Below, piece by piece: positions 17,987 to 52,152 of a DNA stretch of 64,000 bases. The stretch's first letter is position 1. Every line of letters starts with the position of its first letter. Below the pieces are notes generated by a model. That model was given only the letters and a program-made list of their open reading frames with translations, was not told the origin of the DNA and did no database searches. The DNA comes from an uncultured Candidatus Saccharibacteria bacterium (GTDB taxonomy: Bacteria > Patescibacteriota > Minisyncoccia > Phycocordibacterales > PALSA-1337): positions 9,878 through 73,877 of the forward strand of contig CAYMXR010000001.1 in NCBI GenBank assembly GCA_964394505.1, in the 5' to 3' direction. Made by a program: the position numbers and the translations under genes.

Positions 17987-17992
17987 TATAAT
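17987..17992 (+). promoter_or_regulatory. -10 hexamer TATAAT 7 nt upstream of the ATG at 18000 (leaderless transcript predicted); TTGACA at 17931-17936 further upstream
   Basis: Sequence match to the sigma70 consensus. Confidence 0.4.
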
Positions 17993-17999
17993 ATAAGCC

Positions 18000-18851
18000 A
18001 TGAATATACTTAAACCGAAACATATTGAGGAACAAATAATTAACCTTCTCGTAGGTGGTGAGAAATCCACAACCTCTCTTCTCGAACTAATGAGTACAAA
18101 GGTAAAGATAACCAAACAAGGCTTTTATGCTTCACTCCGAAAGCTTCGAGCCAATGAAACTGTCGTGGTTTACAAAGGCAAAGTCTCTCTAAATACAACT
18201 TGGATAGGCAAGATGCGCGATCTCGTGGAAATGATGAGCCGTACATATACCGCTGAGCCATATTCATCTGACTTTCTAAACCTTAACGACAAAGAAAGTA
18301 TTTCCTATTCATTCACTTCTATAAAAAGTTTGGATTCTTTTTGGGGTCATGTTCAAAATATCTTAATTCACAACACCAATAAAAATGAACCTATATACTG
18401 CTACGATCCACATTATTGGCTCTATCTAGTCCGCAGAGACACGGAAAAGGCCTTACTCAAAGAGATTGTAAGTATAAAAAGACAATTTCTGATGAGTAAT
18501 GGAGCGAAAAACAAACTTGACCGACTAATTAAAACAGATTTCAACAGCAATTATTTACAATATAATTACAAAAGACTGTTCGAAAAAGAAAATTACTATA
18601 TTACCGTTATCGGTGATTATATAACCGAAGTGTATATCGATGAAAAAGTTGCCAAGGATATTGATGCTATCTATAAAAATGAAGGTCTAGATACCAAAAC
18701 AGCAATTGAACTTCTAGCCGAATTCCTGCATTCAAGGACACGCAACAGGATCAAGATATCCAAAAATGCAAAACGGGCAATTAAACTAAAGAAAATGATG
18801 GGAAAAGACTTTTTTGTGATGGGGAGAAAAATAGAATCAGAGAGTCACTAA
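18000..18851 (+). CDS. Hypothetical protein with an N-terminal winged-helix-like segment
   Basis: 283 aa; the N-terminal ~60 aa resemble MarR/PadR-like wHTH proteins; C-terminus unknown. Confidence 0.4.
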   Translation: MNILKPKHIEEQIINLLVGGEKSTTSLLELMSTKVKITKQGFYASLRKLRANETVVVYKGKVSLNTTWIGKMRDLVEMMSRTYTAEPYSSDFLNLNDKESISYSFTSIKSLDSFWGHVQNILIHNTNKNEPIYCYDPHYWLYLVRRDTEKALLKEIVSIKRQFLMSNGAKNKLDRLIKTDFNSNYLQYNYKRLFEKENYYITVIGDYITEVYIDEKVAKDIDAIYKNEGLDTKTAIELLAEFLHSRTRNRIKISKNAKRAIKLKKMMGKDFFVMGRKIESESH

Positions 18852-18885
18852 TATCACGCCTAGGTATTTCAATTTTCAAAGTAAC

Positions 18886-18920
18886 AAAAGACCCTGAGCA
18901 TGTCGAAGGGTTTTTTGTTA
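18886..18920 (+). terminator. Rho-independent terminator; copy 2 of the duplicated ~65-bp module (near-identical to 15547-15614)
   Basis: Same stem-loop sequence and flanks as the hup terminator. Confidence 0.65.
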
Positions 18921-18941
18921 AAGCAATTAATCTGCCTGCGG

Positions 18942-19370
18942 TCACTTGCCCTTTTGTTGCGTCCGTCTTAAGCCATCAATATTGTCCATTGAAGCTTGTA
19001 TCCTTCTCGCAAGAATCTTATCATCGTAGAAATACTCACAAACGATCCTCATTTGTGCTGTATTCATTTTCAAATTTCTTTTTCTAAGAAATTCATCTCC
19101 GTGTGCGTCTATAATGTGAAGATAAAATTCTCTAGCTCCCTCCAAATCTTTTTCTTTATCAAAGCTTGGTTGAACCTCATGATCAATAAGTTCACGCGTT
19201 GCAACCAAACATTCTTCAAAAAATTCTCTAGCTTTTGTTGCATCTTCTGGTGAGCCGTGGTCTGCATTCCACAATTGATCGATACATGTTTGTAGCAAGG
19301 CAACTCTTTCGGCTTCTAATCTTTTTAACGAATCTTCATTACTTTCTGGCTCTGGCATGGCTTCACTCAT
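18942..19370 (-). CDS. Hypothetical acidic protein
   Basis: 142-aa ORF with no recognisable motifs. Confidence 0.4.
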   Translation of the reverse strand: MSEAMPEPESNEDSLKRLEAERVALLQTCIDQLWNADHGSPEDATKAREFFEECLVATRELIDHEVQPSFDKEKDLEGAREFYLHIIDAHGDEFLRKRNLKMNTAQMRIVCEYFYDDKILARRIQASMDNIDGLRRTQQKGK

Positions 19371-19451
19371 ATAATTAATTGATTAAGTATTAATGTATCA
19401 ATTTTAAAGTTAATTACTATTAATTACAACATGTAAATTATGGATCATTTT

Positions 19452-19525
19452 TGGTGCGGGATGGGAGAATCGGACTCCCGACCACAGTTTGGAAAACTGT
19501 TATTATACCATTTAACTAATCCCGC
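19452..19525 (-). tRNA. tRNA-Gly (anticodon UCC); CCA is encoded
   Basis: Hand-folded cloverleaf: GCGGGAT acceptor stem, anticodon loop TTTCCAA. The T-loop reads TCCGATT (C at position 55), which is atypical. Confidence 0.6.
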
Positions 19526-19559
19526 TATTTCTAGTTAACAGCAAAATCAATACTAGCAA

Positions 19560-19994: not shown

Positions 19995-20087
19995 AATTCA
20001 AATTGTAACATACTCATGCGTAAATTTCCCAAAGAAAAAGAGGTGCCTTATTTTTAAGATTTAAGATTTGAGATTTTATATTTAATG

Positions 20088-20817: not shown

Positions 20818-21063
20818 CTACGCAAATTTAGACCTCCGGTCTAAATTCGCTACGGCGGGCAAGCCCGCTTTGTCCGTAGTAATCTAGAACGAATTAATTG
20901 CCTAAATAAGCAACAAAAGAAGTATACCGTAATAATATTTTTTTACAAATCTAAATGTGCTGGCACTACTACACTCCTCGCAAGCTCAGCGCTACGAAGT
21001 GCTGGCACTACGAAGCCCTACATCGCGCACCAGCACACTGGTGCGCGATTGCGGGCGAAGTAG

Positions 21064-21135
21064 TGCCCTCGGAGGGACTCGAACCCCCAACAGCGGTTCC
21101 GAAGACCGATGTGATATCCATTTCACCACGAGGGC
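21064..21135 (-). tRNA. tRNA-Arg (anticodon UCG); CCA not encoded
   Basis: Acceptor GCCCTCG/CGAGGGC, perfect D-stem, anticodon loop CTTCGGA, T-loop TTCGAGT; one mismatch at the base of the anticodon stem. Confidence 0.6.
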
Positions 21136-21806
21136 GCATTACCATAATACTGTATTAATAGCTTTTGCCAAGCTCTCATAAGCCTAAAAACATAAACATC
21201 TGCAACACTTAATCCCATACAGCCCTTATAATCAGGGTTTTTCTTGACAGTATGCTTGGTCGGTTTGTATATAGTTTTCATGAAAAGACCTGGCTCTAAG
21301 CCCAATTTACCTGCCCAAAATAATTCAATATTTTCATATCCAGGAACTTTGTGAATAAAAAGTCTGCATTTTATTCTTGCTTTTTCTATTTTCAAAAATT
21401 TTTGAACCCAATTGTGCATAAAGATGACCATGTCCGGATCAGAGTTAACAAATTGGAAAACACTGTGCTTCTTGGCCCCTTCGGCCCAATACAATGCGAT
21501 ACCAATCAAAAAACGCTGATCTTTCATATTATCCGCAAAAATCCTCTTTGCATCTTCAAAAGCTACAATCTCCCTAGCAAGTCTTTTTTGCCTGTTTGTA
21601 GCCGACGATTTTATTATTCCAGCTCCCCTAGTTCCAACCATTTTCGAAGCTATCCTTTCTTTTTCTTCAGTGGTAAGTACCAAATCTTTGAACCAATATG
21701 AAAGCAAACCCTTTGAAACTGGTACGATTTTGGCTATTTCAGAGTAAGTCATACCCTGTTTTCGTAGCTCTATTGCTTGATTTTTATCCATTAACCTAGC
21801 TGTCAT
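21123..21806 (-). CDS. HTH-domain protein of unknown function; possibly a homing-endonuclease-like or mobile-element remnant (LIGIALYWAEG resembles a degenerate LAGLIDADG motif)
   Basis: N-terminal helix-turn-helix (AIELRKQGMTYSEIAKIVPVSKGLLSYWF); the 3' end overlaps tRNA-Arg by 13 nt. Confidence 0.3.
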   Translation of the reverse strand: MTARLMDKNQAIELRKQGMTYSEIAKIVPVSKGLLSYWFKDLVLTTEEKERIASKMVGTRGAGIIKSSATNRQKRLAREIVAFEDAKRIFADNMKDQRFLIGIALYWAEGAKKHSVFQFVNSDPDMVIFMHNWVQKFLKIEKARIKCRLFIHKVPGYENIELFWAGKLGLEPGLFMKTIYKPTKHTVKKNPDYKGCMGLSVADVYVFRLMRAWQKLLIQYYGNAPSW

Positions 21807-21917: not shown

Positions 21918-21925
21918 TGTAGAAT
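21918..21925 (+). promoter_or_regulatory. Extended -10 (TGTAGAAT) 6 nt upstream of the cca ATG; leaderless
   Basis: TGn-TAGAAT match. Confidence 0.35.
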
Positions 21926-24870: not shown

Positions 24871-24959
24871 TAGATTAGTATAACAGATTCCCCGAAGAGA
24901 TTTATCTCGACTTGTCCTGAGTTATTCAAAGGAATTTTTATCAAAACAAGCCTCAATAA

Positions 24960-25880: not shown

Positions 25881-25927
25881 ACCTCTATTGTAAGCCTAAA
25901 GCCGTCCTTGCGCCAATTTTCCATTCA

Positions 25928-25936
25928 TGCTATGAT
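25928..25936 (+). promoter_or_regulatory. Extended -10 (TGCTATGAT) 7 nt upstream of the rpsO ATG; leaderless
   Basis: TGnTATGAT match. Confidence 0.4.
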
Positions 25937-28013: not shown

Positions 28014-28044
28014 CGCTTCCGGCGAGGTCGGACCTCGCCGGAAA
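28014..28044. repeat. Extended perfect palindrome TTCCGGCGAGGTC-G-GACCTCGCCGGAA (copy D), 10 nt upstream of the pnp ATG
   Basis: 13+1+13 palindrome. Confidence 0.8.
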
Positions 28045-38974: not shown

Positions 38975-40576
38975 ATGTTCAATAATACAATTAGAAAACT
39001 TCAAAAACCCGTTTCCGTCATAATGATATTATCTGTACTACTAATCTCTGTACCAAAACAAACTTTTGCAATCCTCGGTGCTGGCGATACGGTAGTAGTT
39101 GTTGGAGATGTAAGTCCTACAGGAATAACAAACTTTGTCAATCATACTCTGATCAAACTCAAGGAGTTTGTGCTCGACAAAATGGCCACCATGTTAATGA
39201 AGCAAATATTGCATCAAATGACCATGGAAGTTGTTAACTGGATCAATGGAGGCTTTCAGGGAAGCCCTGCATTTCTCACAAACCCAGGAGCATTTTTTCT
39301 AGAGGCAGCCGATCAAGTAACTGGCGCTTTTTTGGCCACAAACGGCCCACTTTCTTCACTTTGTTCACCGTTTGCCATTGACATCCGATTAGCATTGGCA
39401 CTAAGTAAGACATCTATGCTTAATCAGCGATATACATGTACCCTTGGAAAAATTATCCAGGCACAAAAAAACGGTCCGGATATAATCGTGAACGGACAAG
39501 TTGTTCGCTCTTCTCAGGGTTCTATGAATGGATTCCTGCGAGGAGACTTCAATCAAGGTGGATGGCCTGCATTCATTGCTCTCACGACTGAACCCAAAAA
39601 CAATCCCTACGGGGCTTTCCTGTCTGCTGAAGCAGACTTAAACGCAAGAATAAATGCAAAACAAGCAACAATTAGGGCCGATATCCAGCTCGGCCAGGGT
39701 TTCATGTCATGGCAAAAATGTTCAGACATACCTGGAGGAACAGTTGATGCTGAAGACGATTACCAAGTTAATACAGTAGAAAGTATGGTAGGTGTTGACC
39801 CTTCAATCAACCGAAAGGTTAACAAAGACGGAACGATAACATATCAATCTTGCGAAACCCAGACACCTGGATCTGTCATTGCGGGTACCCTACAAACACA
39901 CCTCAATGTTCCAGTGGTAGAACTAGAGCTGGCAGACGACATAAATGCGATCATAAATGCTCTGTTTACAAAAATGACATCGACAATAATTTCTGGTGGA
40001 TTAGGAGCATTGAGTGGTAATTCTGGTGCGGGACCATCGTACACGCAACAAGTAATAGATGAAATAGGTACGGCACAAGTAGATCAGGGGACTTTGGACA
40101 ATTTACAGAATGATATCGGACCAGCAATTCAGAAAATCGATTCATATGTATCGATTTATAAAAAAGCCATAGAAGTGCTATCAGAAACAAAAAACAAATT
40201 TATGGTCGCCAGAAAATGCTTTAGCGATAAGTCGGCAAGCGAGTACGCAGGAAACAAGTTATCAGAAATTGATCTAATAATAAATTCTGATATCAATACA
40301 TCAATCGCCTCAATTGAGGCAAGTATCGCATCCGCAATGGCAGATAGAAAAAAGCTTGAGGATATGTCTCTTACCCTTGCCGGCACAGGTTCTCCAAAGA
40401 AAGTTCAGGCTCAGGCCGAAAGATACTCCCAATTCGTTCAAAGTGGTGGCTTGGATATTCAGTCAAAAATCCAAGTTGCCGAAACCATGCTTGAAAATGC
40501 CCAGAAAAAAGCCAAAGATCTTGATATGAAGGCCACCTTGTTACAACTTGAGTGTTACAGAATGGTTACACCGTAG
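38975..40576 (+). CDS. Hypothetical secreted protein (signal peptide)
   Basis: MFNNTIRKLQKPVSVIMILSVLLISVPKQTFA; the track start at 38912 is extended. Confidence 0.45.
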   Translation: MFNNTIRKLQKPVSVIMILSVLLISVPKQTFAILGAGDTVVVVGDVSPTGITNFVNHTLIKLKEFVLDKMATMLMKQILHQMTMEVVNWINGGFQGSPAFLTNPGAFFLEAADQVTGAFLATNGPLSSLCSPFAIDIRLALALSKTSMLNQRYTCTLGKIIQAQKNGPDIIVNGQVVRSSQGSMNGFLRGDFNQGGWPAFIALTTEPKNNPYGAFLSAEADLNARINAKQATIRADIQLGQGFMSWQKCSDIPGGTVDAEDDYQVNTVESMVGVDPSINRKVNKDGTITYQSCETQTPGSVIAGTLQTHLNVPVVELELADDINAIINALFTKMTSTIISGGLGALSGNSGAGPSYTQQVIDEIGTAQVDQGTLDNLQNDIGPAIQKIDSYVSIYKKAIEVLSETKNKFMVARKCFSDKSASEYAGNKLSEIDLIINSDINTSIASIEASIASAMADRKKLEDMSLTLAGTGSPKKVQAQAERYSQFVQSGGLDIQSKIQVAETMLENAQKKAKDLDMKATLLQLECYRMVTP

Positions 40577-40591
40577 AGATTCCATTAACCT

Positions 40592-42490
40592 ATGAAAATG
40601 AGATTACTAAAAAAATACATACCGCTCATAATCTGTTTGTTTGTCCTGCAGACGGATTTCGCTTTTGCACAAGGTGATATAGCAAAGATTTTTGCATTTA
40701 CTGGAATTGTTGAATTAGCTGACTCCGTAGTAGCCATATTTGCCAATATGGCAATGACGGTAGCGAGCTGGTTACTCATAGCTGCGGGGTATATTTTGGA
40801 CATCTCCATTCAATTGACTCTAAATATCAAAGGTTTTGTAAAAGCTACACCAGCAATCTTCACGGTTTGGAAAAGTCTAAGAGATATTACTGGTCTATTT
40901 TTCATCTTCTATTTGTTATACGCAGCAATACAGATGATGACTGGCTGGGGAAAGGAGAGTTATGGATCAACAATCAAAAATATTGTTATTGCTGGAGTCT
41001 TGATTAACTTTAGTTTCTTTATTGTCAGTTTTGGTATCGATGTCTCCAACATTACCTCCCAAGCTCTTTACGGTGCGATGGTACCAAACAAAGTTATTGT
41101 AAAAATCGACGAGAATGCCAGTATCCAAACTCTGGTGAGTAATGCAGGCAAGTCAGACATTTCAAATATCTTCATGAACACTTTGCGTATCCAATCGATA
41201 TACGACACAAAAGGAAACAAACTTGGCACAGAGATAGGGAATCCGATCAAAACAACTCTTATCGGCATCACTGGTGTAATAATGATGATTACCACTGCGG
41301 CAAGCTTTATCCTCGCAGCCTTGGCATTTATTGCCCGTCTAGTTATTTTGCTATTCCTCTTAGCATTTTCTTCTATTTGGTTTGCCAGCATGGTGATACC
41401 GCAATTAAAAGAAGCCGGCAGCAAATTCCAAGGCGCTCTTATGTCACAACTGCTTTTTATGCCAGCCTATCTGCTCCTCATGTATGTTGCTTTGTCGATA
41501 ATCAATGGTAGTACCATATTCCGTGCTGGGGTGATAGACGGCGCTGCAGCGGGTATCACCGGATCAAATTGGATAATGCCGTATATTATACTTCTGGTAA
41601 ATTTTGCCATCATAATATTTATTTTAAACCTACCCCTCGTGGTTGCGCTTAGTATGGGTGGTTATGCTACCAGCTGGTTCAAGGGCTCGATAGACAAATG
41701 GGACGCATTGAAGGTGTGGAGGAATGTTGGGGGATGGGCGAAAGATAATGCCTGGAGAGGTACCGGTGGCCGAGTCGCAAGCACATTAGCCAAAAGTGAA
41801 GGCCTTAAGAACATTGCTGCTAAAAGCAAATTTGGCGAGCTTGTCTTAAAAGGAGTGCGAGGTGCCGGTGGAAGTTACGATAAGAAACTTGCTGAACAGG
41901 TTGAAGCGAGAACTAAGTTTGCAGAATCACTTGGTGCAAATGAAGGAGAGATAATTGGAATTAAAAAGAAATACAGATCACTCATAGAAAATGCTCTTAC
42001 ACAAGAAAAGCGGGCAAGATCAATGGGTGACACGGTAGCCGCGGATAGATACAAGGCATACGCTGAAAATCTTAAAAAGCAACTTGGCGTAGACTTAGTA
42101 AATAAACAAAAAGAAAGACAAGTAAGTTATGCCGAAAGGATTTCTGATCCTGGTATTCTTAGTACATATCCTAATTTGTGGACAAAAGTTGCCAGAAAAG
42201 ACAAGGTGGCGGCAGCTAAAATCAATATCGATGTATGGCAAAAACAACTAGATAAGAAAAAAGAGGCTGTAACTAAGATAAAACAAGATCTGGAACGCAT
42301 TAAAACAGATATAAGAAGGGAAAAGGCAGCCCGCGGTGGCGTCGTCAGTAAAATAAATGAGGACGAACAAAACAAACTTGAACAAAAGTTAAAAGAAGCA
42401 ACTACTAACCCAAGTCACGGAGGTGATGTTGATGCGATGGGTACAGACGATCTTCAGGACTTGATTGATCAGGAAAAATTAACTAAATAA
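40592..42490 (+). CDS. VirB6/TrbL-like polytopic membrane protein (signal peptide, ~8 TM helices, C-terminal charged coiled-coil)
   Basis: Topology and size resemble T4SS VirB6/TrbL proteins; no sequence motif is decisive. Confidence 0.45.
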   Translation: MKMRLLKKYIPLIICLFVLQTDFAFAQGDIAKIFAFTGIVELADSVVAIFANMAMTVASWLLIAAGYILDISIQLTLNIKGFVKATPAIFTVWKSLRDITGLFFIFYLLYAAIQMMTGWGKESYGSTIKNIVIAGVLINFSFFIVSFGIDVSNITSQALYGAMVPNKVIVKIDENASIQTLVSNAGKSDISNIFMNTLRIQSIYDTKGNKLGTEIGNPIKTTLIGITGVIMMITTAASFILAALAFIARLVILLFLLAFSSIWFASMVIPQLKEAGSKFQGALMSQLLFMPAYLLLMYVALSIINGSTIFRAGVIDGAAAGITGSNWIMPYIILLVNFAIIIFILNLPLVVALSMGGYATSWFKGSIDKWDALKVWRNVGGWAKDNAWRGTGGRVASTLAKSEGLKNIAAKSKFGELVLKGVRGAGGSYDKKLAEQVEARTKFAESLGANEGEIIGIKKKYRSLIENALTQEKRARSMGDTVAADRYKAYAENLKKQLGVDLVNKQKERQVSYAERISDPGILSTYPNLWTKVARKDKVAAAKINIDVWQKQLDKKKEAVTKIKQDLERIKTDIRREKAARGGVVSKINEDEQNKLEQKLKEATTNPSHGGDVDAMGTDDLQDLIDQEKLTK

Positions 42491-42491
42491 T

Positions 42492-43709
42492 ATGGATTTT
42501 GACTATAAAACAATAGAAGAATCTTTCTCCAAACTACCAACTGAACTTCAGGGTATTTTGACATCTCCACACATTGTAGAGAAAATTAAATCGGTTGCCA
42601 CAAAAAACGGCTTACTTATAGACCAGATGTCTTCATTATTTGATATTACTAGTTATATAATATTGGGTTTGATTCCTGCATCCAAATTTTCAGAAATGCT
42701 GATAAAAGAAACTCAAGTCGACAAAGCAAAATCACTGAAAATTGCCGAGGAAATAAATAAGGAGGTCTTTTCAACAATAAAATCAATGATGCGAGAGAAG
42801 CAGGAAGTGGCTGATTTATCAAATACGCCAATACAACCTGCAATCCCGCAAAATATTAATTTAGATGGGAATGTTTCAACTATAACCAAACCATCCCACA
42901 TCACCGATCTGGAGAAAGCTGGTGGATTCACAATAGAGCATGATATGGGAAACGGGGAAGTGGGACTTGGTAGCGAAGATTTACGGGCAATGCCAATGAG
43001 GGACAAATGGTCTCCGTTTGGGCAAACTATCGTTCCAACACCGACTAAACAAACAGTCGAAGCATCTCCTGTGATTACAAAGACCATTGAGGTACAACAA
43101 CCTATTCCAAAATCAGACAATATTCCAACTGAACCATCAACACCAACCCCAGTCATAATAAAGACGATTGAAGCAAAAGAAACCTTTATCAAAGAGCCAA
43201 TAATATCCAAACTAACAGCTCCTGTCGTTGAAGCGCCTATTCAAAAGACTACAGAAGTGATTGAACAAAAAGTTGAGACAAAAATTGAACCGGAAGTTGA
43301 AGTAAAAGAAGAGGTAGTGTCAACAGTTCCAGACAATCTACCAATAGAGCCAGTCACCTTACCAAAAGCAACAGAAGAATCGCCTATACCAAAAGAGCAG
43401 ATCGTTTTACCAAAAACTGTAGGAGAGCCATCTGTGCCAATAGAACCGGAGAATAACTCGCTAGCAGAAACAATAATCAATCTACGCAGGATTAAAGATG
43501 CTACGCCAAAACCACAAATCGAACAGATGCCAACAATTGAACAGCCAACGAAATCAGAGTCAAACACTAAAAAAGAACAAACACCCCCTCCACAACCCGC
43601 TCCAGAATTAATAGTTCCAGAGAAAATAAAATTAAATCCTGGTATACCAAAACCAATCGAACAGCAAAGACCTAGATCGTCTGATCCATACAGAGAACCG
43701 ATAAACTAA
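42492..43709 (+). CDS. Hypothetical protein with a Pro/Glu/Val-rich repetitive C-terminal half
   Basis: 405-aa ORF translationally coupled to the preceding gene. Confidence 0.4.
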   Translation: MDFDYKTIEESFSKLPTELQGILTSPHIVEKIKSVATKNGLLIDQMSSLFDITSYIILGLIPASKFSEMLIKETQVDKAKSLKIAEEINKEVFSTIKSMMREKQEVADLSNTPIQPAIPQNINLDGNVSTITKPSHITDLEKAGGFTIEHDMGNGEVGLGSEDLRAMPMRDKWSPFGQTIVPTPTKQTVEASPVITKTIEVQQPIPKSDNIPTEPSTPTPVIIKTIEAKETFIKEPIISKLTAPVVEAPIQKTTEVIEQKVETKIEPEVEVKEEVVSTVPDNLPIEPVTLPKATEESPIPKEQIVLPKTVGEPSVPIEPENNSLAETIINLRRIKDATPKPQIEQMPTIEQPTKSESNTKKEQTPPPQPAPELIVPEKIKLNPGIPKPIEQQRPRSSDPYREPIN

Positions 43710-43752
43710 ATTCCTTCGCGAGAAAATGATATTTGCAGTATAATATACACAA

Positions 43753-44181
43753 ATGCGATTCCAAGTTCCTCAATTTATAGAAATGGAAGATAAAATCTTC
43801 GGACCACTTACACTCAAACAGTTTATCTATTTGGCTGGCGGAGGAGGTTTGTCATTCGTCGTTTATGTATTCTTAGACAGCCTCATATTATCAATCATCC
43901 CAATTGCTTTAATTGTCGGCATATCTACTTCTTTGGCTTTTTACAAGATAAACAACAAACCCCTTATTTCTATTCTCGAATCAGCTTTTTATTATTACTT
44001 CGGCAACAAATTGTATATCTGGAAAAAGGAAGCTAATGCAAAAAAGGTCAGCGATCCCCAAGCAAATTCAAATAGCTATGCTTCGATCATGGTTCCAAAA
44101 ATTTCCGATAGCAAACTCAAAGACTTAACTTGGAGTTTAGACATAAAAGAAAGTATATATTCCAACAAAAAGCAACAATAA
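43753..44181 (+). CDS. Small two-TM membrane protein, VirB3-like by position and topology
   Basis: Hairpin TM pair; immediately upstream of the VirB4 genes. Confidence 0.35.
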   Translation: MRFQVPQFIEMEDKIFGPLTLKQFIYLAGGGGLSFVVYVFLDSLILSIIPIALIVGISTSLAFYKINNKPLISILESAFYYYFGNKLYIWKKEANAKKVSDPQANSNSYASIMVPKISDSKLKDLTWSLDIKESIYSNKKQQ

Positions 44182-44182
44182 A

Positions 44183-44824
44183 ATGGCCAATTCATCAAAA
44201 GCAACTCAAGAGTTCGTGCCCATCAAGGAGATCCGTGATGGTATTGTGATACTCAAAAATGGGGGAATGAGAAGCCTTGTACTTGTTTCATCTTTGAATT
44301 TCGCACTCAAATCTGAGGATGAGCAAAGCTCAATACTTATGCAGTTTCAAAATTTTCTAAATTCACTTGATTTCTCAGTACAAATCTTTATTCAATCAAA
44401 AAAACTGGACATAAGGCCGTATGTAGCTTTACTAGAAGATCGATATAAAGACCAAGTAAGTGAGCTTATGAAAATCCAGGTCAGAGAATACATAGAATTC
44501 GTCAAGACCTTTGTCGAAAATACAAGCATTATGTCAAAAAGTTTTTTTGTAGTCGTACCTTACGATCCAGCGGCGATAAACATTTCCAAGAATCCTATTT
44601 CTAAATTTTTTCCAGGGAAAAACAATAACCAGACTCAATCAGAAAACGCTGACGAGCAATTCAACGAATACCGAAGCCAGCTAGAGCAAAGAGTAGCGGT
44701 AGTCGAACAGGGTTTAGTCAGGTGTGGTATCAGAACCGCAGAACTCGGTACCGAGGAAGTGGTAGAATTGTATTACAAACTTTTCAATCCCGGAGAAACA
44801 GAGAAACCGATCCAAATAACATAA
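44183..44824 (+). CDS. VirB4/TrbE/CagE-family N-terminal domain as a separate ORF
   Basis: ATQEFVPIKEIRDGIVILKNGGMRSLVLVSSLNF resembles the VirB4 N-terminus. The stop is 4 nt before the next ATG, in a different frame. Confidence 0.55.
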   Translation: MANSSKATQEFVPIKEIRDGIVILKNGGMRSLVLVSSLNFALKSEDEQSSILMQFQNFLNSLDFSVQIFIQSKKLDIRPYVALLEDRYKDQVSELMKIQVREYIEFVKTFVENTSIMSKSFFVVVPYDPAAINISKNPISKFFPGKNNNQTQSENADEQFNEYRSQLEQRVAVVEQGLVRCGIRTAELGTEEVVELYYKLFNPGETEKPIQIT

Positions 44825-44828
44825 AATT

Positions 44829-46643
44829 ATGTCTTTCATTTCAAAATTACTAGGAAAAAAAGAAGAATCGCCAATAGTCTCTGTTCTCCCGGAGGAGATA
44901 TACCAGGCTGGGGTCTTGGAACTCCGAGATGTTATAGCCCCATCAGCTCTCAAGGTAAGCCCCAAGGATCTAAACCTTGGAGAAAAGGTTGGTCGAACAC
45001 TCTTTGTGATTTCATACCCCCGTTTTGTGAACGAAGGGTGGTTTGCCCCGATCATCAACCTAGACAAAGTCTTCAATGTTTCAATATTCATTCACCCCGT
45101 CGATACCGCCAAAATTCTTCGTCATTTCCAAAAGAAAGTTGCCGAAGTTCAAAGCCAAATTTCAAGAAGGGAAGAGAAGGGTTTGGTCCGAGAACCTTCT
45201 TTGGATACTGCATATCAAGATCTAGAATCTCTTCGCGATCAATTGATGCAGGCACAAGAACATCTATTTGATGTCGGTGTTTACATCACAATATTTGCCG
45301 ATTCCGACAATGAGCTCGACAAACTCGAATCAGAGATAAAATCAATTCTTGAGTCGAAGCTAGTCTATGTAAAACCTGCTTTGTTCCAACAAGAACAAGG
45401 TTTCAAAAGCGTTTTGCCGATCGGCGACGATCTCTTGGCAGTTCATTCCAAACTCAACTCTTCACCACTTTCTTCTTTGTTTCCTTTTGTTTCTTTTGAT
45501 CTTACTTCCGACAAGGGAATACTTTACGGCATAAACCGCCACAACTCTTCATTGGTTCTTTTTGATCGTTATTCATTAGAAAATTACAATTCTGTAACAT
45601 TTGCTGTTGCTGGTTCTGGTAAATCTTACTGCACAAAACTTGAGATTCTTCGAACTTTGATGTTCGACACTGATGTCATAGTTATCGATCCAGAAAAAGA
45701 ATACGAATATATGGCCTCGGCTACTGGTGGAAAATATTTCAACATTTCACTCAATTCAGAACATCACATCAACCCATTTGATCTACCAATACCTAGAGAA
45801 GACGAATCCGCCAGTGATGTTTTGCGTTCAAATATCATCAACCTTGTGGGTTTGTTTCGTATCATGCTTGGAGGTTTGTCACAAGAAGAAGATGCTATCA
45901 TTGACCGAGCAATCACCGAGACTTATGCCTTGAAAGACATTACTCCCGAATCAGATTTTCACAATGTAGAACCTCCTCTATTGTCAGATTTCGAGCTTGT
46001 CTTGGCTGGAATGGAAGGAGCAGATTCCTTGGTGCAAAGATTATCCAAATATACAAAAGGCACTTGGGCAGGTTTCATAAACCGACCATCAAATGTTGAT
46101 ATCAACAAAAAATTTGTCGTCTTCTCTTTACGAGACATGGAGGATGAACTCAAACCTGTGGCAATGTACATCGTCACTCACTATATCTGGAACGCTATTA
46201 GAAAAAACCTAAAGAAGAGACTTCTGGTCATAGACGAAGCTTGGTGGATGATGAAATCCGAAGATACCGCTTCATTCCTTTTTGGTCTAGCCAAAAGAGG
46301 CAGAAAATATTTCCTTGGTTTGGCCACTATCACCCAAGATGTTGATGATTTCCTGAAATCTCCTTACGGTTTACCAATTCTTACAAACTCTTCTATCCAA
46401 ATATTGCTCAAACAATCTCCGACTGTGATAGATCACATTCAGCAGACATTCCACCTTACCGATGAAGAAAAATACCTGTTATTGGAGTCGGATGTGGGGG
46501 AGGGTATATTCTTCGTTGGCCTCAAACATGTCGCTATAAAAATAGTCGCTTCATATACAGAAGACCAGATAATCACCACTAATCCTGCTCAAGTCATACA
46601 AATAGCTCAAGCAAAAAAAGAACTAGAAAATCTTGGTAAGTAA
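44829..46643 (+). CDS. virB4: VirB4-like type IV secretion ATPase (C-terminal NTPase portion)
   Basis: Walker A AVAGSGKSY, Walker B LLVIDEAWWM, conserved YPRFVNEGWFAPI region, and the TITQDVDDF motif. Confidence 0.8.
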   Translation: MSFISKLLGKKEESPIVSVLPEEIYQAGVLELRDVIAPSALKVSPKDLNLGEKVGRTLFVISYPRFVNEGWFAPIINLDKVFNVSIFIHPVDTAKILRHFQKKVAEVQSQISRREEKGLVREPSLDTAYQDLESLRDQLMQAQEHLFDVGVYITIFADSDNELDKLESEIKSILESKLVYVKPALFQQEQGFKSVLPIGDDLLAVHSKLNSSPLSSLFPFVSFDLTSDKGILYGINRHNSSLVLFDRYSLENYNSVTFAVAGSGKSYCTKLEILRTLMFDTDVIVIDPEKEYEYMASATGGKYFNISLNSEHHINPFDLPIPREDESASDVLRSNIINLVGLFRIMLGGLSQEEDAIIDRAITETYALKDITPESDFHNVEPPLLSDFELVLAGMEGADSLVQRLSKYTKGTWAGFINRPSNVDINKKFVVFSLRDMEDELKPVAMYIVTHYIWNAIRKNLKKRLLVIDEAWWMMKSEDTASFLFGLAKRGRKYFLGLATITQDVDDFLKSPYGLPILTNSSIQILLKQSPTVIDHIQQTFHLTDEEKYLLLESDVGEGIFFVGLKHVAIKIVASYTEDQIITTNPAQVIQIAQAKKELENLGK

Positions 46644-46663
46644 AATTCTGATATAATCTGAGT

Positions 46664-47149
46664 ATGTCTACGAAGGGAAACAGATCAAAGGGAATTGGTT
46701 GGATAATCATGTATATTTTTACAGGAGCGGTTGACTTATTCCAGATCTTCGTTTCCGCTACTGGTATCGGAATCGTCGCAAGTGAATTTGTTGAATTTGC
46801 AATGCCCTTTATTTTGATATTTGTTTTTCAGTTTATAATCAAAGCCTCCGTCATTACCAAACCAGACCGACTAGGATCTATTGCCGGTGCTTTGGGTCTA
46901 GGCGCCCTCACCGGCGGGATCGCGCCATTTTGGATTGTTGATGTTTGGTATATTCAGAGAAGTGTAAAAAAAGAAGATGCCGAATACAATAGGCAAGAAC
47001 AAAAGCAGCAACTATTGACCAACAACACTAGACAGACACTTTACCGAGACGGAGTAAGGCAACCACAAAGACTAGGACAAGGTGAGGGCAACGATTCTGG
47101 ACCACAATACAAAGAGGGTATACGGACACCAAACGGGGGACTGAAATAG
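46664..47149 (+). CDS. Hypothetical small polytopic membrane protein
   Basis: 3-4 TM helices. Confidence 0.4.
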   Translation: MSTKGNRSKGIGWIIMYIFTGAVDLFQIFVSATGIGIVASEFVEFAMPFILIFVFQFIIKASVITKPDRLGSIAGALGLGALTGGIAPFWIVDVWYIQRSVKKEDAEYNRQEQKQQLLTNNTRQTLYRDGVRQPQRLGQGEGNDSGPQYKEGIRTPNGGLK

Positions 47150-47209
47150 GGATGTGTCACATCCCCCCCTTCAATTGATTAAAGTGCGATTTGCCAGTAA
47201 AATATAGCA

Positions 47210-48211
47210 ATGAATCGTTTGCTATTTTTTATAACATTGATCTTTATAAGCACATTTTCGATTGTCTCGACTAGCGCCCAAGGGCTTCCCATAAACGGTG
47301 GAGGGATAATTTTGACAATGTCTACCGAGAGTCCTGTCCCCGGTCAAAAAATAACCATTACGGCCAGAAGTTACACTATAGACATCAATTCATCAGAAGT
47401 AACATGGTCAATTGATGACAAAATCATTCAAAAAGGATTTGGCTTAACAAAAATGGAAACGATCGCTCCTCCCCTTGGTAAAAAGGTTACAGTGACTGTT
47501 TCGGCCTCTACCAATACAGGAATAAAAATTTCTGACTCTATAACCATAAGCCCCGGTTCAGTCGATATGATAATAGAAGGGGATGGTTATGTTACGCCAC
47601 TTTTCCAAGGCAAATTACCATTATCATACCAAAACACTTTTCGTATAATCGCTGTGCCACACCTAGCAGATTCCAAAGGAGTCGAATACAAAGCGAAAGA
47701 TTTGGTTTATCAATGGAAAAGGAATAGCCGAGTTATAGAAGAAGATAGCGGTTATGGAAAACAAACCTTATCTTTGACAGGAGATATTGTGCCAAGAGAA
47801 GCGACGATAAGTGTCACGGTTTCAACAAGAGATGGTAAAGAGAGAACTACTGGTTATATCTCTGTCCCTTATATTTCTCCTTCTGTATTATTTTATGAAG
47901 ATGACTATTTGTATGGACCTCTTTTCAATAAAACTATAAAAGATACAATTATTATTGGCAAAGAAAAAGAACTTAATGTCTTGATGGCACCTTTTGGTTT
48001 CAATAAACCAACAAAAGGTCTTGGTGATTTGAATCTGCTTTGGACGATCAATGGTTATGAACATCCAGAACTATCTTCAAACGAATCAATTACCCTCCGA
48101 GCTCCAGCGGGTATGTCTGGGTCATCACGAATTGGTCTAGAAATCACTAATGATAAAGATATTCTTCAAAATGCTGATAATGGCTTTTCCATAAAATTTA
48201 ATTCAAAATGA
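47210..48211 (+). CDS. Hypothetical secreted protein (signal peptide)
   Basis: MNRLLFFITLIFISTFSIVSTSAQG. Confidence 0.4.
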   Translation: MNRLLFFITLIFISTFSIVSTSAQGLPINGGGIILTMSTESPVPGQKITITARSYTIDINSSEVTWSIDDKIIQKGFGLTKMETIAPPLGKKVTVTVSASTNTGIKISDSITISPGSVDMIIEGDGYVTPLFQGKLPLSYQNTFRIIAVPHLADSKGVEYKAKDLVYQWKRNSRVIEEDSGYGKQTLSLTGDIVPREATISVTVSTRDGKERTTGYISVPYISPSVLFYEDDYLYGPLFNKTIKDTIIIGKEKELNVLMAPFGFNKPTKGLGDLNLLWTINGYEHPELSSNESITLRAPAGMSGSSRIGLEITNDKDILQNADNGFSIKFNSK

Positions 48212-49419
48212 AAAATCTAAATAAAATCTTACTGGTGGTTGCAATGATTTCGATCTTGGGGTCTTCATATTCATGTTTGGCACAATCTGATGCAAAATAT
48301 ACTGTACTTGCTCCTTTACCTTGTATAGAAAGCGCAGAAACTACATATATTGACAGCCAGGGCCAATCCAGAACCAATCCAGGTATCACTTGCGAAGGTA
48401 ATGGTTCGGTTGCAACTGAAGTAGATTTCAAAACTTATGTGCAATACACCATGAATCTTCTCATTGCTCTATCTGCTGTCGTAGCTGTGGTAATGTTGGT
48501 TTGGGGAGGTATAGAGTACATGTTCACAAGCTCTTTTTCTTCAAAAAAGAGCGGTTTGGAGCGAGCGCAAAACGCTTTGGTTGGTCTATTACTTGTACTC
48601 ACCTCCTACATCATTCTCCGCACCGTAGACCCTAGGTTGGTAGAGATACCAAATACTCTAGTGCCACAATTGACGGTAAGGGAGGAGTTACGGGAAGATG
48701 TGTTTGACTCATTCACGACTCAATTAGAAAATGAAATTACTGAGTATGACAAAAATCGAACTAAGCTCGGTGAAGAGCTGACTGATATTAGACGAAAAAG
48801 AGCGGAGCTAGCAGAAAAAGAAAAAGATCTTCAAAGAAGGATCGCCTCTTCTACAGATCCTGTAGAGATTAATAAGTTAAAGGTGGAACTGGAAAAGACA
48901 ATGGAAGAAAATATTCAAAAGAAAGCGGTTGATATTGTAAAAAAGGCAACAATCGCAATTAATGGCAACTTGGATGAAATAGCAAAGATTGTGCTTGAGG
49001 GGAGGGATTACCAACACCAAGACAAGTTTGATGTGATAAGCCGAAATATGGGACTACTCAACAAGCACCTTGCAAATATGCAGATAGAGTATGCAGTCGC
49101 GACCGAAGAGTTAGGCAAGATTAGAGTGTTTGACAGCACATCTTTAAGGGACCAGAGGAATCATTACACAACGATCGGTAGACTAGACATGTTGAATTTA
49201 TCAATCGGTAGTATCACTGGCTCAAATAATTATTACGATGTAATTCTAACCAATGGAACCAAAGATAAGAAAAGGGGTCCTGTACTGAAAGAGGAAATCC
49301 AGACTGAAATCAACAGTCTGCAAAGATTTATCGACGCAACAACCGATACTGAACTTAAACAAAAAATGGTGACCAAAAAAGCCCAGGTAGAAGCAGCACT
49401 AAAAAATAAACTTCCATAA
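48208..49419 (+). CDS. Hypothetical secreted protein with a Cys-containing N-domain, a two-TM hairpin and a long coiled-coil; 4-nt ATGA overlap with the upstream gene
   Basis: Signal peptide plus the MNLLIALSAVVAVVMLVWGGIEY / ALVGLLLVLTSYIIL hydrophobic pair. Confidence 0.4.
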   Translation: MKNLNKILLVVAMISILGSSYSCLAQSDAKYTVLAPLPCIESAETTYIDSQGQSRTNPGITCEGNGSVATEVDFKTYVQYTMNLLIALSAVVAVVMLVWGGIEYMFTSSFSSKKSGLERAQNALVGLLLVLTSYIILRTVDPRLVEIPNTLVPQLTVREELREDVFDSFTTQLENEITEYDKNRTKLGEELTDIRRKRAELAEKEKDLQRRIASSTDPVEINKLKVELEKTMEENIQKKAVDIVKKATIAINGNLDEIAKIVLEGRDYQHQDKFDVISRNMGLLNKHLANMQIEYAVATEELGKIRVFDSTSLRDQRNHYTTIGRLDMLNLSIGSITGSNNYYDVILTNGTKDKKRGPVLKEEIQTEINSLQRFIDATTDTELKQKMVTKKAQVEAALKNKLP

Positions 49420-49427
49420 AAAAATAA

Positions 49428-50759
49428 ATGCGAAACTCGACCAAAATAATCTGGATAATATTAATCATACTGATCATTTCGGTTGCTTTGTATTGGTACT
49501 TCTTCTTTTATGGCCCAGGCAATCAGATAGAACCTATTGTAAATGATCCAAACACACCTTCTGGTTTCGTACCTCTAAATAGCAATAATCCAACAAACAA
49601 TCCGGTAAGCACGACCGAACCCGATATCGATTCCGCAACGACGACGGATAATGGCCTAGACTTGCAAACGATCGAGGGTACATTGCCAAAATTGCGTTTA
49701 CTTAGCAACACACCGATCGGTGGTTATGGAGCAAGTACAACCGCAAGTACAACCGTTGTCCGTTGGATCGATAGAGGGAGGGGTAATATCCTAGAAGCCA
49801 AGGGTGATTCCGGTGAAATTGTCATATTGTCAAACACTCTTTTGCCACGAATGTATGAGGGGGTTTGGAATAAGAACATAACCGCTTTCATCGGATCATT
49901 AATCAATAATAATGCCGACACCCCATCAACTGTCTATGCAAAACTTTATTCCCAAGCAAGCACAACAAGCAAAGTCGCAACCTCAACCTCAATTGCAACA
50001 ACAACTGATGAAAAAAATACCAATGTTACTCCTTATTATATAAAAGGTAAAAACTTACCAGAAAACATCATAGATTATGCCGTATCACCAGGAGGTGACA
50101 AAGTATTCCTTCTAATAAAAGAATCCGGTCAAGGTGTCGGGTATGTGGCAAATTTCGATGGAACAAAACTAATTCAAATATTCAATCAACCGCTCACAGA
50201 AGTCAATGTTGATTGGCCAGAAGAAAACACCCTAACCATAGCAACCAAAGGGTCAGCAAACCATCAAGGTTTTCTATATTTTGTTAACGCAAAAACTGGA
50301 ATATGGCAAAAGGTTCTTGGTCCAATATATGGACTTAGCGCCAAGGTAAGCAGGGACGCAAAATATATTCTTGTCTCAACCATCAATGCCGACAAGGAAC
50401 CAGTAATAAAAATATACAAAGTAGGAACAAGCGCACCAATCGACACCATGATCAGGACTTTGGCAGATAAATGCGTCTGGGGCAACAACTACAAAGAACT
50501 GGTTTACTGCGCAGTACCATCAAATACAGAAAACGCCACTTATCCCGATGATTGGTACAAAGGTTCCGTTGACTTTAGTGACAAGATTTTACAATACAAC
50601 ACAAAAGACGAAACTATTTCGGTCGTCTCTCCTATACTAGATCAAACCGATAGACTTATAGACGCTTTCAATCTTGGAGTCGACGACCGTGATGATTTTC
50701 TATTCTTTATGAACAAGCACGATCTATCGTTTTGGTCATTGGACCTTAGTGCAGAGTAA
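49428..50759 (+). CDS. Hypothetical membrane-anchored beta-rich extracytoplasmic protein
   Basis: N-terminal TM IIWIILIILIISVALYWYFFFY. Confidence 0.4.
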   Translation: MRNSTKIIWIILIILIISVALYWYFFFYGPGNQIEPIVNDPNTPSGFVPLNSNNPTNNPVSTTEPDIDSATTTDNGLDLQTIEGTLPKLRLLSNTPIGGYGASTTASTTVVRWIDRGRGNILEAKGDSGEIVILSNTLLPRMYEGVWNKNITAFIGSLINNNADTPSTVYAKLYSQASTTSKVATSTSIATTTDEKNTNVTPYYIKGKNLPENIIDYAVSPGGDKVFLLIKESGQGVGYVANFDGTKLIQIFNQPLTEVNVDWPEENTLTIATKGSANHQGFLYFVNAKTGIWQKVLGPIYGLSAKVSRDAKYILVSTINADKEPVIKIYKVGTSAPIDTMIRTLADKCVWGNNYKELVYCAVPSNTENATYPDDWYKGSVDFSDKILQYNTKDETISVVSPILDQTDRLIDAFNLGVDDRDDFLFFMNKHDLSFWSLDLSAE

Positions 50760-50767
50760 TTGAGGAA

Positions 50768-51526
50768 TTATCTTATGTGTTTTTTCTTGATGTACAACTC
50801 TTGTGCCAAAGTAAACAGGGAACTAACTGACCAGTAGATCGCAATGATTGAGGCGGCTTGGGGGAAACTAGCTGGAATAATCCAGTATATTGAAGCGAAA
50901 GCAACAACTGGAAGTATGTACTTCATCTGAGTATTCATTGAGCTTGCCATCTGTGAAGCAGGGTCAAGCTTGCCTCCGCTCTTAACTGTAGCATCTGCCA
51001 TATCCTGTTGCTGACGAGCAGCAACTGAATACTTGAGTTGGAAATATTGGATCACTCCAGTAATAAGAGCCAAAATAAAACTCTTTTGAGTCAGATCTAG
51101 ACCCAAAAGGGTAGCGCTGGCGTGCGGAGCCTGAATAAAAGAATACAATAATTCTGGTTGAACGTTTGGGATAATCTTGTAAAAGACCGAGATCAGAGCA
51201 AAAAGGATCGGTAACTGAATAATCAAAAGTAATATACTAGAAAGAGGATTAACTCCTTTTTGTTTATAAAGTTCCATTATCTTCAAAGCCTGTTCTTGTT
51301 TGTTGTTTGAGTACTGCAACCTGATCTTATTTGCTTCTGGTTCAATCGCTTTCATCCTAACTTGAGTAAGTAAAGCTTTTTTTGATAGAGGAAATAGAAT
51401 AAATTTGATAATACAAGTAAAAATAACTACTGCAAGACCAACATCTATACCAGGAATAATGTTCATAATTCCAATAAGGCCGTTGTATAAGGGAAGAAAA
51501 ATTAGCTCTTTATATAAATTGTACAT
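50768..51526 (-). CDS. yidC: Membrane protein insertase YidC (short form)
   Basis: 252 aa with YidC/Oxa1 core helices; sits in the rpmH-rnpA-yidC synteny. Confidence 0.85.
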   Translation of the reverse strand: MYNLYKELIFLPLYNGLIGIMNIIPGIDVGLAVVIFTCIIKFILFPLSKKALLTQVRMKAIEPEANKIRLQYSNNKQEQALKIMELYKQKGVNPLSSILLLIIQLPILFALISVFYKIIPNVQPELLYSFIQAPHASATLLGLDLTQKSFILALITGVIQYFQLKYSVAARQQQDMADATVKSGGKLDPASQMASSMNTQMKYILPVVAFASIYWIIPASFPQAASIIAIYWSVSSLFTLAQELYIKKKHIR

Positions 51527-51535
51527 CTGTGTATT

Positions 51536-51865
51536 TTACTTTATAAGCCCGGCTTTTACAAAGATTTCTTTTACCTCTTCTAATAATGAATCTTTTTCTG
51601 TTTTTGTTTTCAAACACAAGACCATTTGATAACCAGAGAGGGGGAGGCTTCCACAAATCAAAGCAATTGCATTGTACATCTTTCTTCTATAACCGACTCT
51701 CTGCGAAGCCTTGCTTGCAATTTTTTGTGGAACTATGGCCGAAAACCTAGTCTGGCCTTCGTTTTTTATAATTCTCAACCAAAAAGACGGTGTATGAACA
51801 ACTTTGCCAGTTTTCATAACCAAATCTAACTGTTCACTAGAGAGTCTTTTTGAACGGGGGAGCAT
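51536..51865 (-). CDS. rnpA: Ribonuclease P protein component
   Basis: MLPRSKRLSS...; RNR-motif-like basic region; the track ORF from 51931 is extended. Confidence 0.8.
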   Translation of the reverse strand: MLPRSKRLSSEQLDLVMKTGKVVHTPSFWLRIIKNEGQTRFSAIVPQKIASKASQRVGYRRKMYNAIALICGSLPLSGYQMVLCLKTKTEKDSLLEEVKEIFVKAGLIK

Positions 51866-51872
51866 GCTTCCA

Positions 51873-52007
51873 TTATACAGCCACGCGCTTCCTGCCGATA
51901 CTGCGTCTTCGGGCCAAAACCTTGCGACCACCAGGACTTTTCATTCGAACACGAAAACCGTGTGACTTTGCTCTTTTTCTTTTGTTTGGATTGTATGTAA
52001 ATGACAT
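51873..52007 (-). CDS. rpmH: 50S ribosomal protein L34
   Basis: Hand-translated: [44 protein letters not shown]; below the ORF-track size cutoff. Confidence 0.85.
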
Positions 52008-52088
52008 GATTTGGCTACTATACATTATCTTTTACCAAGGCGCAACTTTTTTGCTGTGTTTTTTGCTTTATAAAAAGTTATGAACAAC

Positions 52089-52116
52089 TTATCAACATAT
52101 TTTAAAGCTCTCCACA
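52089..52116. promoter_or_regulatory. DnaA-box-like 9-mers (TTATCAACA at 8/9; CTCTCCACA at 7/9) in the rpmH-dnaA spacer
   Basis: Matches to TTATCCACA. Confidence 0.35.
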
Positions 52117-52152
52117 AGTTTGCAGATTTATAAACAGGTATATACTAGTGTC

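Follow-up and report, generated by a model that had tools for sequence, protein, structure and literature searches.

The 64,000-nt stretch of DNA analysed here (the window) holds roughly 60 genes, many of which have, shortly before the start codon, a hexamer resembling the bacterial -10 promoter element TATAAT. Among them are type IV pilus genes and, at 38-51 kb, a cluster with PrgI, VirB4/TraG-like and type IV secretion system (T4SS) pilin genes, a content that fits bacteria of the Candidate Phyla Radiation (CPR). The encoded DnaA is 50-85% identical to that of 80 GTDB species representatives, with record titles including Paceibacterota, Parcubacteria, Taylorbacteria and Patescibacteria group, and the named homologues of the protein encoded at position 18000 come from Pacebacteria, Taylorbacteria and Paceibacterota. 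From these homologues we assigned the window to the Patescibacteria, class Paceibacteria; judged by this sequence similarity, its source is a CPR/Patescibacteria bacterium of the class Paceibacteria (Parcubacteria), near Candidatus Taylorbacteria.

An initial annotation of the window had pointed to TATAAT-like or extended -10 hexamers lying 6-7 nt before the ATG, with no Shine-Dalgarno (SD) sequence, in at least six genes, and had read them as a sign of widespread leaderless mRNAs. All six hexamers are indeed present, on the forward strand. Taking the spacer as the number of nucleotides between the end of the hexamer and the ATG, it measures 6 nt in three genes: cca, encoding the CCA tRNA nucleotidyltransferase (TAGAAT at 21920-21925, ATG at 21932), the 30314 gene, encoding a hypothetical protein of 445 aa (extended -10 (TGT)TATAAT at 30302-30307, ATG at 30314), and dnaA (TATACT at 52141-52146, ATG at 52153), where a DnaA-box-like CTCCACAAG occupies the -35 position. 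It measures 7 nt in rpsO, encoding ribosomal protein S15 (extended -10 TGC-TATGAT at 25928-25936, ATG at 25944, with a -35 TTGCGC 17 nt upstream), and in the 18000 gene, encoding a conserved hypothetical protein of 283 aa (TATAAT at 17987-17992, ATG at 18000). The first gene of the T4SS-like cluster departs from the claimed spacing, its extended -10 (TGC)TATAAT at 38070-38075 ending 10 nt before the ATG at 38086. The TG quoted for cca, at 21918-21919, directly abuts the hexamer and lies outside the canonical TGn register. GGAG, GAGG and AGGA are absent upstream of all six genes, as claimed. The number six itself proved an undercount, as about 22 of the roughly 60 window genes fit the -10-to-ATG architecture in a tally that allows alternative in-frame starts, including tig, a HIT protein, exoIII, xerC/D, a DksA/TraR-like gene, comM, uvrD, yidC, two PilB-type ATPases and several genes of the T4SS cluster.

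The spacing statistics that the initial annotation had suggested were run on the window and on 160 related loci (L001-L160), and both show a sharp peak at spacer 6. Window genes were called mechanically and blind to the motif, as the first ATG of non-overlapping long open reading frames (ORFs; n = 57). Of these 57 first ATGs, 15 had TANNNT at exactly spacer 6 (binomial P = 8e-11), where other upstream offsets gave 3% and internal ATGs about 1%; 20,000 shuffles that preserved composition yielded 9 at most. Hexamers matching TATAAT in at least five of six positions were likewise concentrated there: spacer 6 had 12 and spacer 7 had 4, and the other spacers from 0 to 20 had 0-3 each. Generic TTGACA-N17-TATAAT sites numbered 56 in the window where 50.3 were expected, no excess over chance; the signal resides in the position of the hexamer relative to the ATG.

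The related loci comprised 80 dnaA-anchored genome loci and 80 PNPase-anchored metagenome loci with 10-kb flanks, 1.6 Mb in total. Around PNPase, TANNNT stood at spacer 6 in 169 of 890 genes (19%), at spacer 7 in 58 and at spacers 8 and 9 in about 40 each, on a background of 2-3% at other offsets; around dnaA, spacer 6 was found in 46 and spacer 7 in 33 of 429 genes. Per related locus (those with at least 10 genes), the leaderless-type share of genes lay between 7% and 50%, the median being about 26%. The pattern was present in relatives from 34% to 60% GC, including loci of 53-60% GC, and is thus not an artefact of AT-richness.

The sequence around the hexamers has the character of a promoter. 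With the A of the ATG numbered +1, an unfiltered profile of 1281 distinct upstream regions was informative only at T-12, A-11 and T-7 (Kullback-Leibler divergence 0.064 each) and at -1, where a pyrimidine is found; in this numbering, T-12, A-11 and T-7 are the sigma-70 anchor positions of the canonical scheme. Within the spacer-6 class (n = 229), the features beyond those imposed by the filter were tAA at -10 to -8, TG at -15/-14 (51% and 52%) and TT(G) at -35 to -33. A TGn extension is found in 11 of 23 candidate promoters of the window, and in several of these 11 the -35 is poor, in line with what extended -10 promoters would be expected to show.

The occurrence of the motif depends on operon context. 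Neighbouring genes often fall into the gap classes from -4 to +4 nt, and the motif precedes 6% of the genes that overlap or abut their upstream neighbour, compared with 35-37% of those separated from it by a gap of 6-50 nt. Where the same-strand gap is exactly 9 nt, the upstream stop codon (TAA or TAG) forms the first three bases of the TAnnnT in 17 of 18 cases, giving hexamers such as TAAAAT and TAGAAT; examples in the window lie at 31649-31654 and 51533-51538. That the enrichment in short gaps arises purely from stop codons beginning with TA was rejected, as it leaves unexplained the non-coding AAT/T6 and the fixed 9-nt gap (17/18).

We then recorded the position of the nearest TANNNT in orthologues of the window genes aligned at their N-termini. 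The hexamer was at spacer 6-7 in 29 of 44 distinct rpsO upstream regions (43 of 44 at spacer 6-9), 9 of 12 for cca, 3 of 4 for the 18000 gene, 24 of 31 for xerC/D (with at least six different hexamers in use), 20 of 28 for exoIII, 22 of 31 for yidC, 15 of 24 for the dksA-like gene, 19 of 37 for comM and 9 of 11 for uvrD. The rpsO orthologue sequences listed share a conserved TTGCn -35 followed, after about 17 nt, by TGnTAnnAT. Homologues of the 18000 gene from four lineages keep TATAAT or TATACT 7 nt (in one case 10 nt) before the ATG, the 30314 gene has TATACT or TATAAT 6-8 nt before the ATG in loci L081, L082 and L088, and the cluster gene at 38086 has a spacer of 6-18 nt in relatives, with TATAAT 8-18 nt before the ATG among those listed. 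Controls that look leadered or operon-internal in the window stayed at background (spacer 6-7 in 9/75 for pnp, 8/69 for dnaN, 1/52 for the NYN gene and 1/14 for HU). Across the predicted leaderless genes the spacing is thus retained while the hexamer itself varies (TACAAT, TATACT, TAGAAT, TACACT and others), and as this holds gene by gene with controls at background, the trait is gene-specific and maintained by selection.

The dnaA promoter is informative in a different way. Its element ataaacaggTATATACT, adjoining the DnaA-box-like TCCACA, is conserved in about 60 relatives, yet its distance from the ATG varies: within the 45 nt upstream of dnaA in L001-L080, some relatives have it 6-9 nt away (spacer 6-7 in 22 of 74), and in others, with an SD-free leader, 15-30 nt separate the two. 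This variation is the behaviour of a promoter, not of a fixed-distance ribosome-binding site (RBS), and it suggests that leaderless and leadered states interconvert by small indels among close relatives.

SD sequences are essentially absent, at about background level, from the other genes as well. Of the genes without a proximal hexamer, 2.2% are preceded by GGAGG and 5.5% by GGAG, the background farther upstream being 0.5% and 3.2%; in the spacer 6-9 class (n = 440) the values were 0% and 0.2%. The k-mers enriched upstream of non-leaderless starts were A/T-rich only, with no purine-rich k-mers among them, and the upstream regions of these genes are A-rich and G-poor. The reduced ribosomes of this group are, according to reports, often devoid of the anti-SD, bS21 and uL1 and have a short bS1. 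Of the Parcubacteria 16S genes, only 48% had a detected anti-SD motif, and the same study reported bS21 to be frequently absent and bS1 short (PMC9297842); the SD-free upstream regions fit this loss of CCUCCU, reported for about half of the Parcubacteria (PMC9297842). No rRNA gene was found in the window by Rfam, which returned only 4 tRNAs, or in L001-L160 by a regular-expression search for conserved 16S/23S segments.

Taken together, position, promoter features, operon context, orthologue conservation and the near-absence of SD support the widespread leaderless mRNAs that the initial annotation had proposed. We consider it probable (about 0.82) that the hexamers are sigma-70-type -10 elements giving rise to leaderless mRNAs, beside SD-less leadered and translationally coupled genes. 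Sigma-70 holoenzyme would bind TTGnnn-17-(TGn)TAnnnT and begin transcription on the A of the ATG, the purine 7 nt past the hexamer, or no more than about 1-3 nt away from that A, yielding an mRNA with neither a 5' leader nor an SD site. In Actinobacteria, Deinococcus and model transcripts of E. coli, the 5'-AUG of leaderless mRNAs is bound directly by ribosomes with initiator tRNA, and by analogy ribosomes with initiator tRNA may recognise the 5'-terminal AUG here. The architecture would extend to roughly one third of all genes in this lineage and, among its transcription units, probably to about half. Many short operons and single genes would own a promoter, some of these promoters lying within the 3' end of the upstream gene and some drawing the first -10 bases from its stop codon. 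For the remaining genes, translation would rely on termination-reinitiation where stop and start codons overlap or abut, or on A-rich, unstructured, SD-less leaders.

Several observations weigh against this interpretation or limit its reach. We infer the 5' ends and the initiation mechanism, the transcription start at the ATG being predicted from the position of the -10 element and not from mapped 5' ends. The spacer drifts from 6 to 9-10 nt among orthologues of rpsO, the dksA-like gene and the cluster gene, which predicts leaders of 1-4 nt in such cases, and spacer 7 is barely enriched in the window alone (3 against about 1.7 expected). Spacer 10 as a class shows no enrichment among window first ATGs, and for the cluster gene at 38086 a short leader of about 3-4 nt should be more likely than none. 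For some genes, distal promoters are plausible: the 18000 gene has a second, better-consensus TTGACA-18-TGcTATATT at 17925-17954, partly conserved, with a predicted 39-nt leader. Matches to the -35 that lie inside the upstream coding sequence are confounded by protein conservation, the gene calls (first ATG of long ORFs) are crude and make all fractions approximate, and the loss of the anti-SD is, for this lineage, borrowed from the literature. At single sites a -10 hexamer, 7 nt and an ATG can be coincidental, as at ATG 15184 in the leader of the HU gene. The site before rnpA (TATAAT, 6 nt, ATG 51865) was set aside as uncertain, being common to only 2 of 49 orthologues; here the rpmH stop codon TAA falls inside the TATAAT at 51872-51877.

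Three other explanations were weighed against leaderless transcription. In AT-rich intergenic DNA (the genome has 40% GC, and TANNNT stands at about 3% of upstream offsets), combined with a bias in the choice of starts, proximal hexamers could arise by chance, all the more as the total of promoter-like sites does not exceed the shuffled expectation; but the starts were chosen blind to the motif, the 15 cases at spacer 6 exceed every one of the 20,000 shuffles, the same peak recurs in 1.6 Mb of relatives including those of 53-60% GC, and conservation runs gene by gene and is missing in the controls. The positional statistics already refute chance, and we regard it as hardly credible. A more specific proposal is that the proximal hexamers, real or fortuitous, contribute little, with the main transcription coming from promoters farther upstream, such that the dominant mRNAs are leadered and SD-less and leaderless forms are minor. 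The distal promoter of the 18000 gene lends itself to this, as do the many dnaA relatives that are leadered from the same promoter, and read-through from the preceding gene would occur beside internal promoters where these lie in gaps of 9-20 nt. However, a second positional peak of -10-like hexamers farther upstream was not found in the window or the PNPase loci, rpsO, xerC/D and exoIII conserve the whole promoter (-35 or TG plus -10) amid unconserved upstream sequence, and the exact conservation of 6-7 nt is hard to explain for a functionless hexamer, making this improbable as a general account.

It is still less probable, in our view, that TAnnnT acts on the mRNA, as a non-SD RBS or translation enhancer in leadered transcripts (similar to 'group B' of GeneMarkS-2) that might pair with an altered 16S tail or bind S1. 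A spacing of 6-7 nt equals that usual for SD, some other signal might be expected in a lineage lacking SD motifs, and Pribnow boxes share with RBSs their distance from the start codon (PMC6028130), the discriminator being whether the motif also precedes operon-internal genes. Precisely there the motif is depleted, fivefold before overlapping operon-internal genes, and it is absent from the leadered controls pnp, dnaN and NYN across 50-75 orthologues. An RBS would also leave unexplained why an extended -10 TG and a -35 TTG occur at the spacing canonical for sigma-70, why the conserved positions match the sigma-70 anchors, and why the conserved dnaA element lies 15-30 nt from the ATG in some relatives.

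Reading the hexamers as -10 elements of leaderless transcripts bears on the choice of start codons, which we compared with the longest-ORF starts. The initial annotation had suspected that several TTG, GTG or extended starts are wrong, and this suspicion is justified, for example in dnaA, rpsO and the cluster gene. For dnaA, the longest-ORF TTG at 52120 falls within DNA conserved as promoter, and nearly all of the 78 orthologues listed start at the N-terminus aligned with ATG 52153 (M-N/Q-D-x-x-K-M-W in closer relatives). The rpsO ORF from ATG 25863 is 27 codons too long: the S15 profile begins at its residue 32, and the protein starting at ATG 25944 (MLT...) aligns with 49 orthologues from residue 1 onward. 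The longest ORF of the cluster gene begins at GTG 38077, 1 nt past the -10 hexamer, a start that standard callers probably misplace. Longest-ORF starts upstream of the promoter or inside its spacer are also seen in pilB (TTG 4548), the T2SSE ATPase gene (ATG 62356) and uvrD (ATG 34982), and profile and orthologue N-termini agree with the ATG that follows the hexamer. For nusA the start is most likely ATG 4953, as the NusA_N profile begins at residue 30 of the ORF from TTG 4890. Among relatives, two cca orthologues start with GTG.

Further candidate promoters of the same type are spread over the window. On the reverse strand, a TATAAT at 4502-4507 lies 7 nt before the ATG at 4494 of a PilB-type ATPase gene, and a second TATAAT at 62345-62350 lies 6 nt before the ATG at 62338 of the other PilB/T2SSE ATPase gene; in the former the longest ORF begins at the TTG at 4548, in the latter at an ATG upstream of the hexamer. 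The two PilB-type ATPases together with PilC (1412-4494, 60665-62338) are typical of Patescibacteria surface machinery. Also on the reverse strand and 6 nt before the start codon are the extended -10 (TGA)TATAGT at 16630-16635 (ATG 16623, HIT family), the extended -10 (TGT)TATACT at 24877-24882 (ATG 24870, exonuclease III family), TACAAT at 25887-25892 (ATG 25880, a XerC/D-type recombinase divergent from rpsO) and TAAAAT at 51533-51538 (ATG 51526, yidC), which is built on the rnpA stop codon and has a -35 TTGTAA at 17 nt. The gene divergent from the 18000 gene has an extended -10 (TGG)GATAAT at 17909-17914 (reverse strand) with a -35 ATGACA at 17 nt, 6 nt before the GTG at 17902, a probable leaderless GTG start on the strength of this arrangement; its orthologue in L161 has GATAAT, 6 nt and an ATG at the same place. 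An extended -10 (TGT)TACAAT at 20002-20007, reverse strand, 7 nt before the ATG at 19994, has weak orthologue support (3/7).

On the forward strand, all with 6 nt unless stated otherwise, are TAGACT at 10648-10653 before the ATG at 10660 of the trigger factor gene tig, with a -35 TTGCCA at 17 nt; TAAAAT at 31649-31654 before the ATG at 31661 of a DksA/TraR-type zinc finger gene, with a -35 TTGAAA at 17 nt and its first three bases formed by the stop codon of the 30314 gene; the extended -10 (TGA)TATTAT at 32079-32084 before the ATG at 32091 of comM, a ComM/YifB Mg-chelatase-like ATPase gene; and the extended -10 (TGT)TAAACT at 34976-34981 before the ATG at 34988 of the UvrD/PcrA helicase gene, whose first ATG (34982) lies within the spacer. 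The T4SS-like cluster at 38086-50759 (PrgI family, VirB4/TraG-like ATPase, T4SS pilin and many family-less proteins) contains several internal leaderless-type promoters: TATAAT at 43739-43744, 8 nt before the ATG at 43753 of a PrgI-family gene (or TAATAT at 6 nt), the extended -10 (TGA)TATAAT at 46652-46657 before the ATG at 46664, and TAAAAT at 47198-47203 before the ATG at 47210.

One further site was rejected. The ATG at 15184, 7 nt past a TATAAT, had been a candidate coding start for HU and lies in a conserved non-coding leader: over the 93 nt that separate it from the HU ATG, conservation is at the DNA level, and a close relative carries a 1-nt indel there. The true start of HU is the ATG at 15277, giving 90 aa, as in relatives, versus 168 aa for the longest ORF, and its conserved leader of about 93 nt (15171-15276) begins at the TATAAT promoter. 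Folding of this 93-nt leader gave no significant structure (z = -1.0), and Rfam gave no match.

Other elements of the window stand beside these promoters. DnaA-box-like TCCACA motifs occur at or near the -35 of both the dnaA promoter (52108-52118) and the promoter of the cluster gene at 38086 (about 38033-38041). CTCCACAAGTT is conserved in most dnaA relatives, and TGTCCACAGAA lies upstream of the T4SS-cluster promoter, with a perfect TTATCCACA in the relative L092; the motifs shared by the two promoters suggest that DnaA or another factor may regulate both. The 76-bp divergent intergenic region upstream of the 18000 gene (17925-17982) contains a palindromic TTGACAATGTCA, a potential -35 for either direction. 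An inverted repeat GTAAAC-N5-GTTTAC, which looks like an operator, lies at the -35 position of the 18000 promoter and is kept in four homologous loci; the predicted leader of the distal 18000 promoter contains this conserved palindrome. Elsewhere, the tRNA-Arg gene (21063-21135, reverse strand) has a promoter TTGGCA-16-TATTAT (21144-21171) ending 8 nt before the mature 5' end, a distance that predicts a precursor with almost no 5' leader; an ORF at 21123-21806 (reverse strand) overlaps this tRNA by 13 nt.

A 17-nt palindrome, GCGAGGTCNGACCTCGC, occurs five times in the window (11994-12010, 12087-12103, 12326-12342, 28022-28038 and 62406-62422; 0 expected) and nowhere in the 1.6 Mb of L001-L160. 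Three copies lie in frame inside an rsmE-like ORF (11834-12586, reverse strand), encoding ARSDLA twice and CEVRPS once, and these in-frame copies resemble insertions in the style of Rickettsia palindromic elements. The remaining two copies are intergenic, one of them 13 nt ahead of the pnp ATG.

The prediction has practical consequences. Gene callers tuned to SD will misplace many starts in such genomes, as for dnaA, rpsO, pilB, HU, nusA and probably the first gene of the T4SS cluster, and CPR genomes account for a large share of metagenome-derived proteins. The promoters fitted into gaps of 9-20 nt with reused stop codons illustrate how transcription units are packed in a streamlined genome, and expression cassettes built on the consensus TTGnnn-17-(TGn)TAnnnT-6-ATG could be tried in emerging Patescibacteria genetic systems. 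How anti-SD-less Parcubacteria start translation had been left open (PMC9297842); leaderless initiation would answer this concretely, and in a testable form, for about one gene in three and tie the ribosome reduction of the CPR to its initiation mode. A bolder reading, to which we give somewhat less than even odds, is that the whole class Paceibacteria gave up SD/anti-SD pairing for leaderless units with one promoter per gene, some with a -10 formed on the preceding gene's stop codon, supplemented by reinitiation and unstructured A-rich leaders, with reduced ribosomes specialised for 5'-AUG (70S-type) initiation. If true, Paceibacteria would represent a free-living-lineage parallel to mitochondria and haloarchaea.

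The closest known counterpart is the leaderless transcription of Actinobacteria and Deinococcus-Thermus (M. tuberculosis, C. glutamicum, S. coelicolor, D. deserti), the 'group C' of GeneMarkS-2, whose bacterial leaderless signature is a Pribnow box 6-8 nt from the start (PMC6028130). There, as here, a -10 box lies 6-8 nt before first-in-operon starts that have no SD, and the 5'-terminal start is AUG or occasionally GUG. The 25-50% of transcription units that are leaderless in group C compare with about 22 of 60 window genes and 7-50% of the genes in related loci, a share estimated here from motif counts. The present lineage differs in being low-GC, ultra-small Patescibacteria, outside the group C taxa named (PMC6028130), in packing promoters into gaps of 9-20 nt and reusing stop codons in the -10, and in its leadered genes, which have neither an SD nor another RBS motif, whereas those of group C carry SD.

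In this last respect the leadered genes resemble those of haloarchaea or of group B/X genomes. Haloarchaea (Haloferax volcanii, Halobacterium salinarum) likewise combine a large leaderless fraction with SD-less leadered genes, but do so with a TATA box about 26 nt upstream, TBP/TFB and archaeal initiation factors in place of the bacterial sigma-70-type -10 seen here. Bacteroidota, or group B, share the A-rich, G-poor upstream regions without SD on non-leaderless genes; unlike the present lineage, however, they use a -7 promoter element TAnnTTTG (a sigma-A variant) and are not rich in leaderless genes, and the group B motif also precedes operon-internal genes, where the motif described here is depleted.

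Nearest in phylogeny are the anti-SD-less Parcubacteria of the same phylum-level group, whose loss of CCUCCU fits the SD-free regions; the study describing them covered rRNA and ribosomal proteins only, with mRNA 5' architecture and leaderless mRNAs absent from it (Tsurumaki et al. 2022, PMC9297842). Searches of the literature for 'leaderless' together with Patescibacteria, CPR, Parcubacteria or Saccharibacteria returned no report of the phenomenon, although coverage was incomplete and an earlier description is possible; the matches were citations of the GeneMarkS-2 title or concerned YchF or secretion only, and a 2024 PNAS perspective on Patescibacteria leaves promoters and SD unmentioned. 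The mechanism is thus one known from Actinobacteria and Deinococcus and in that sense unsurprising, while the phylum in which it is predicted here seems new.

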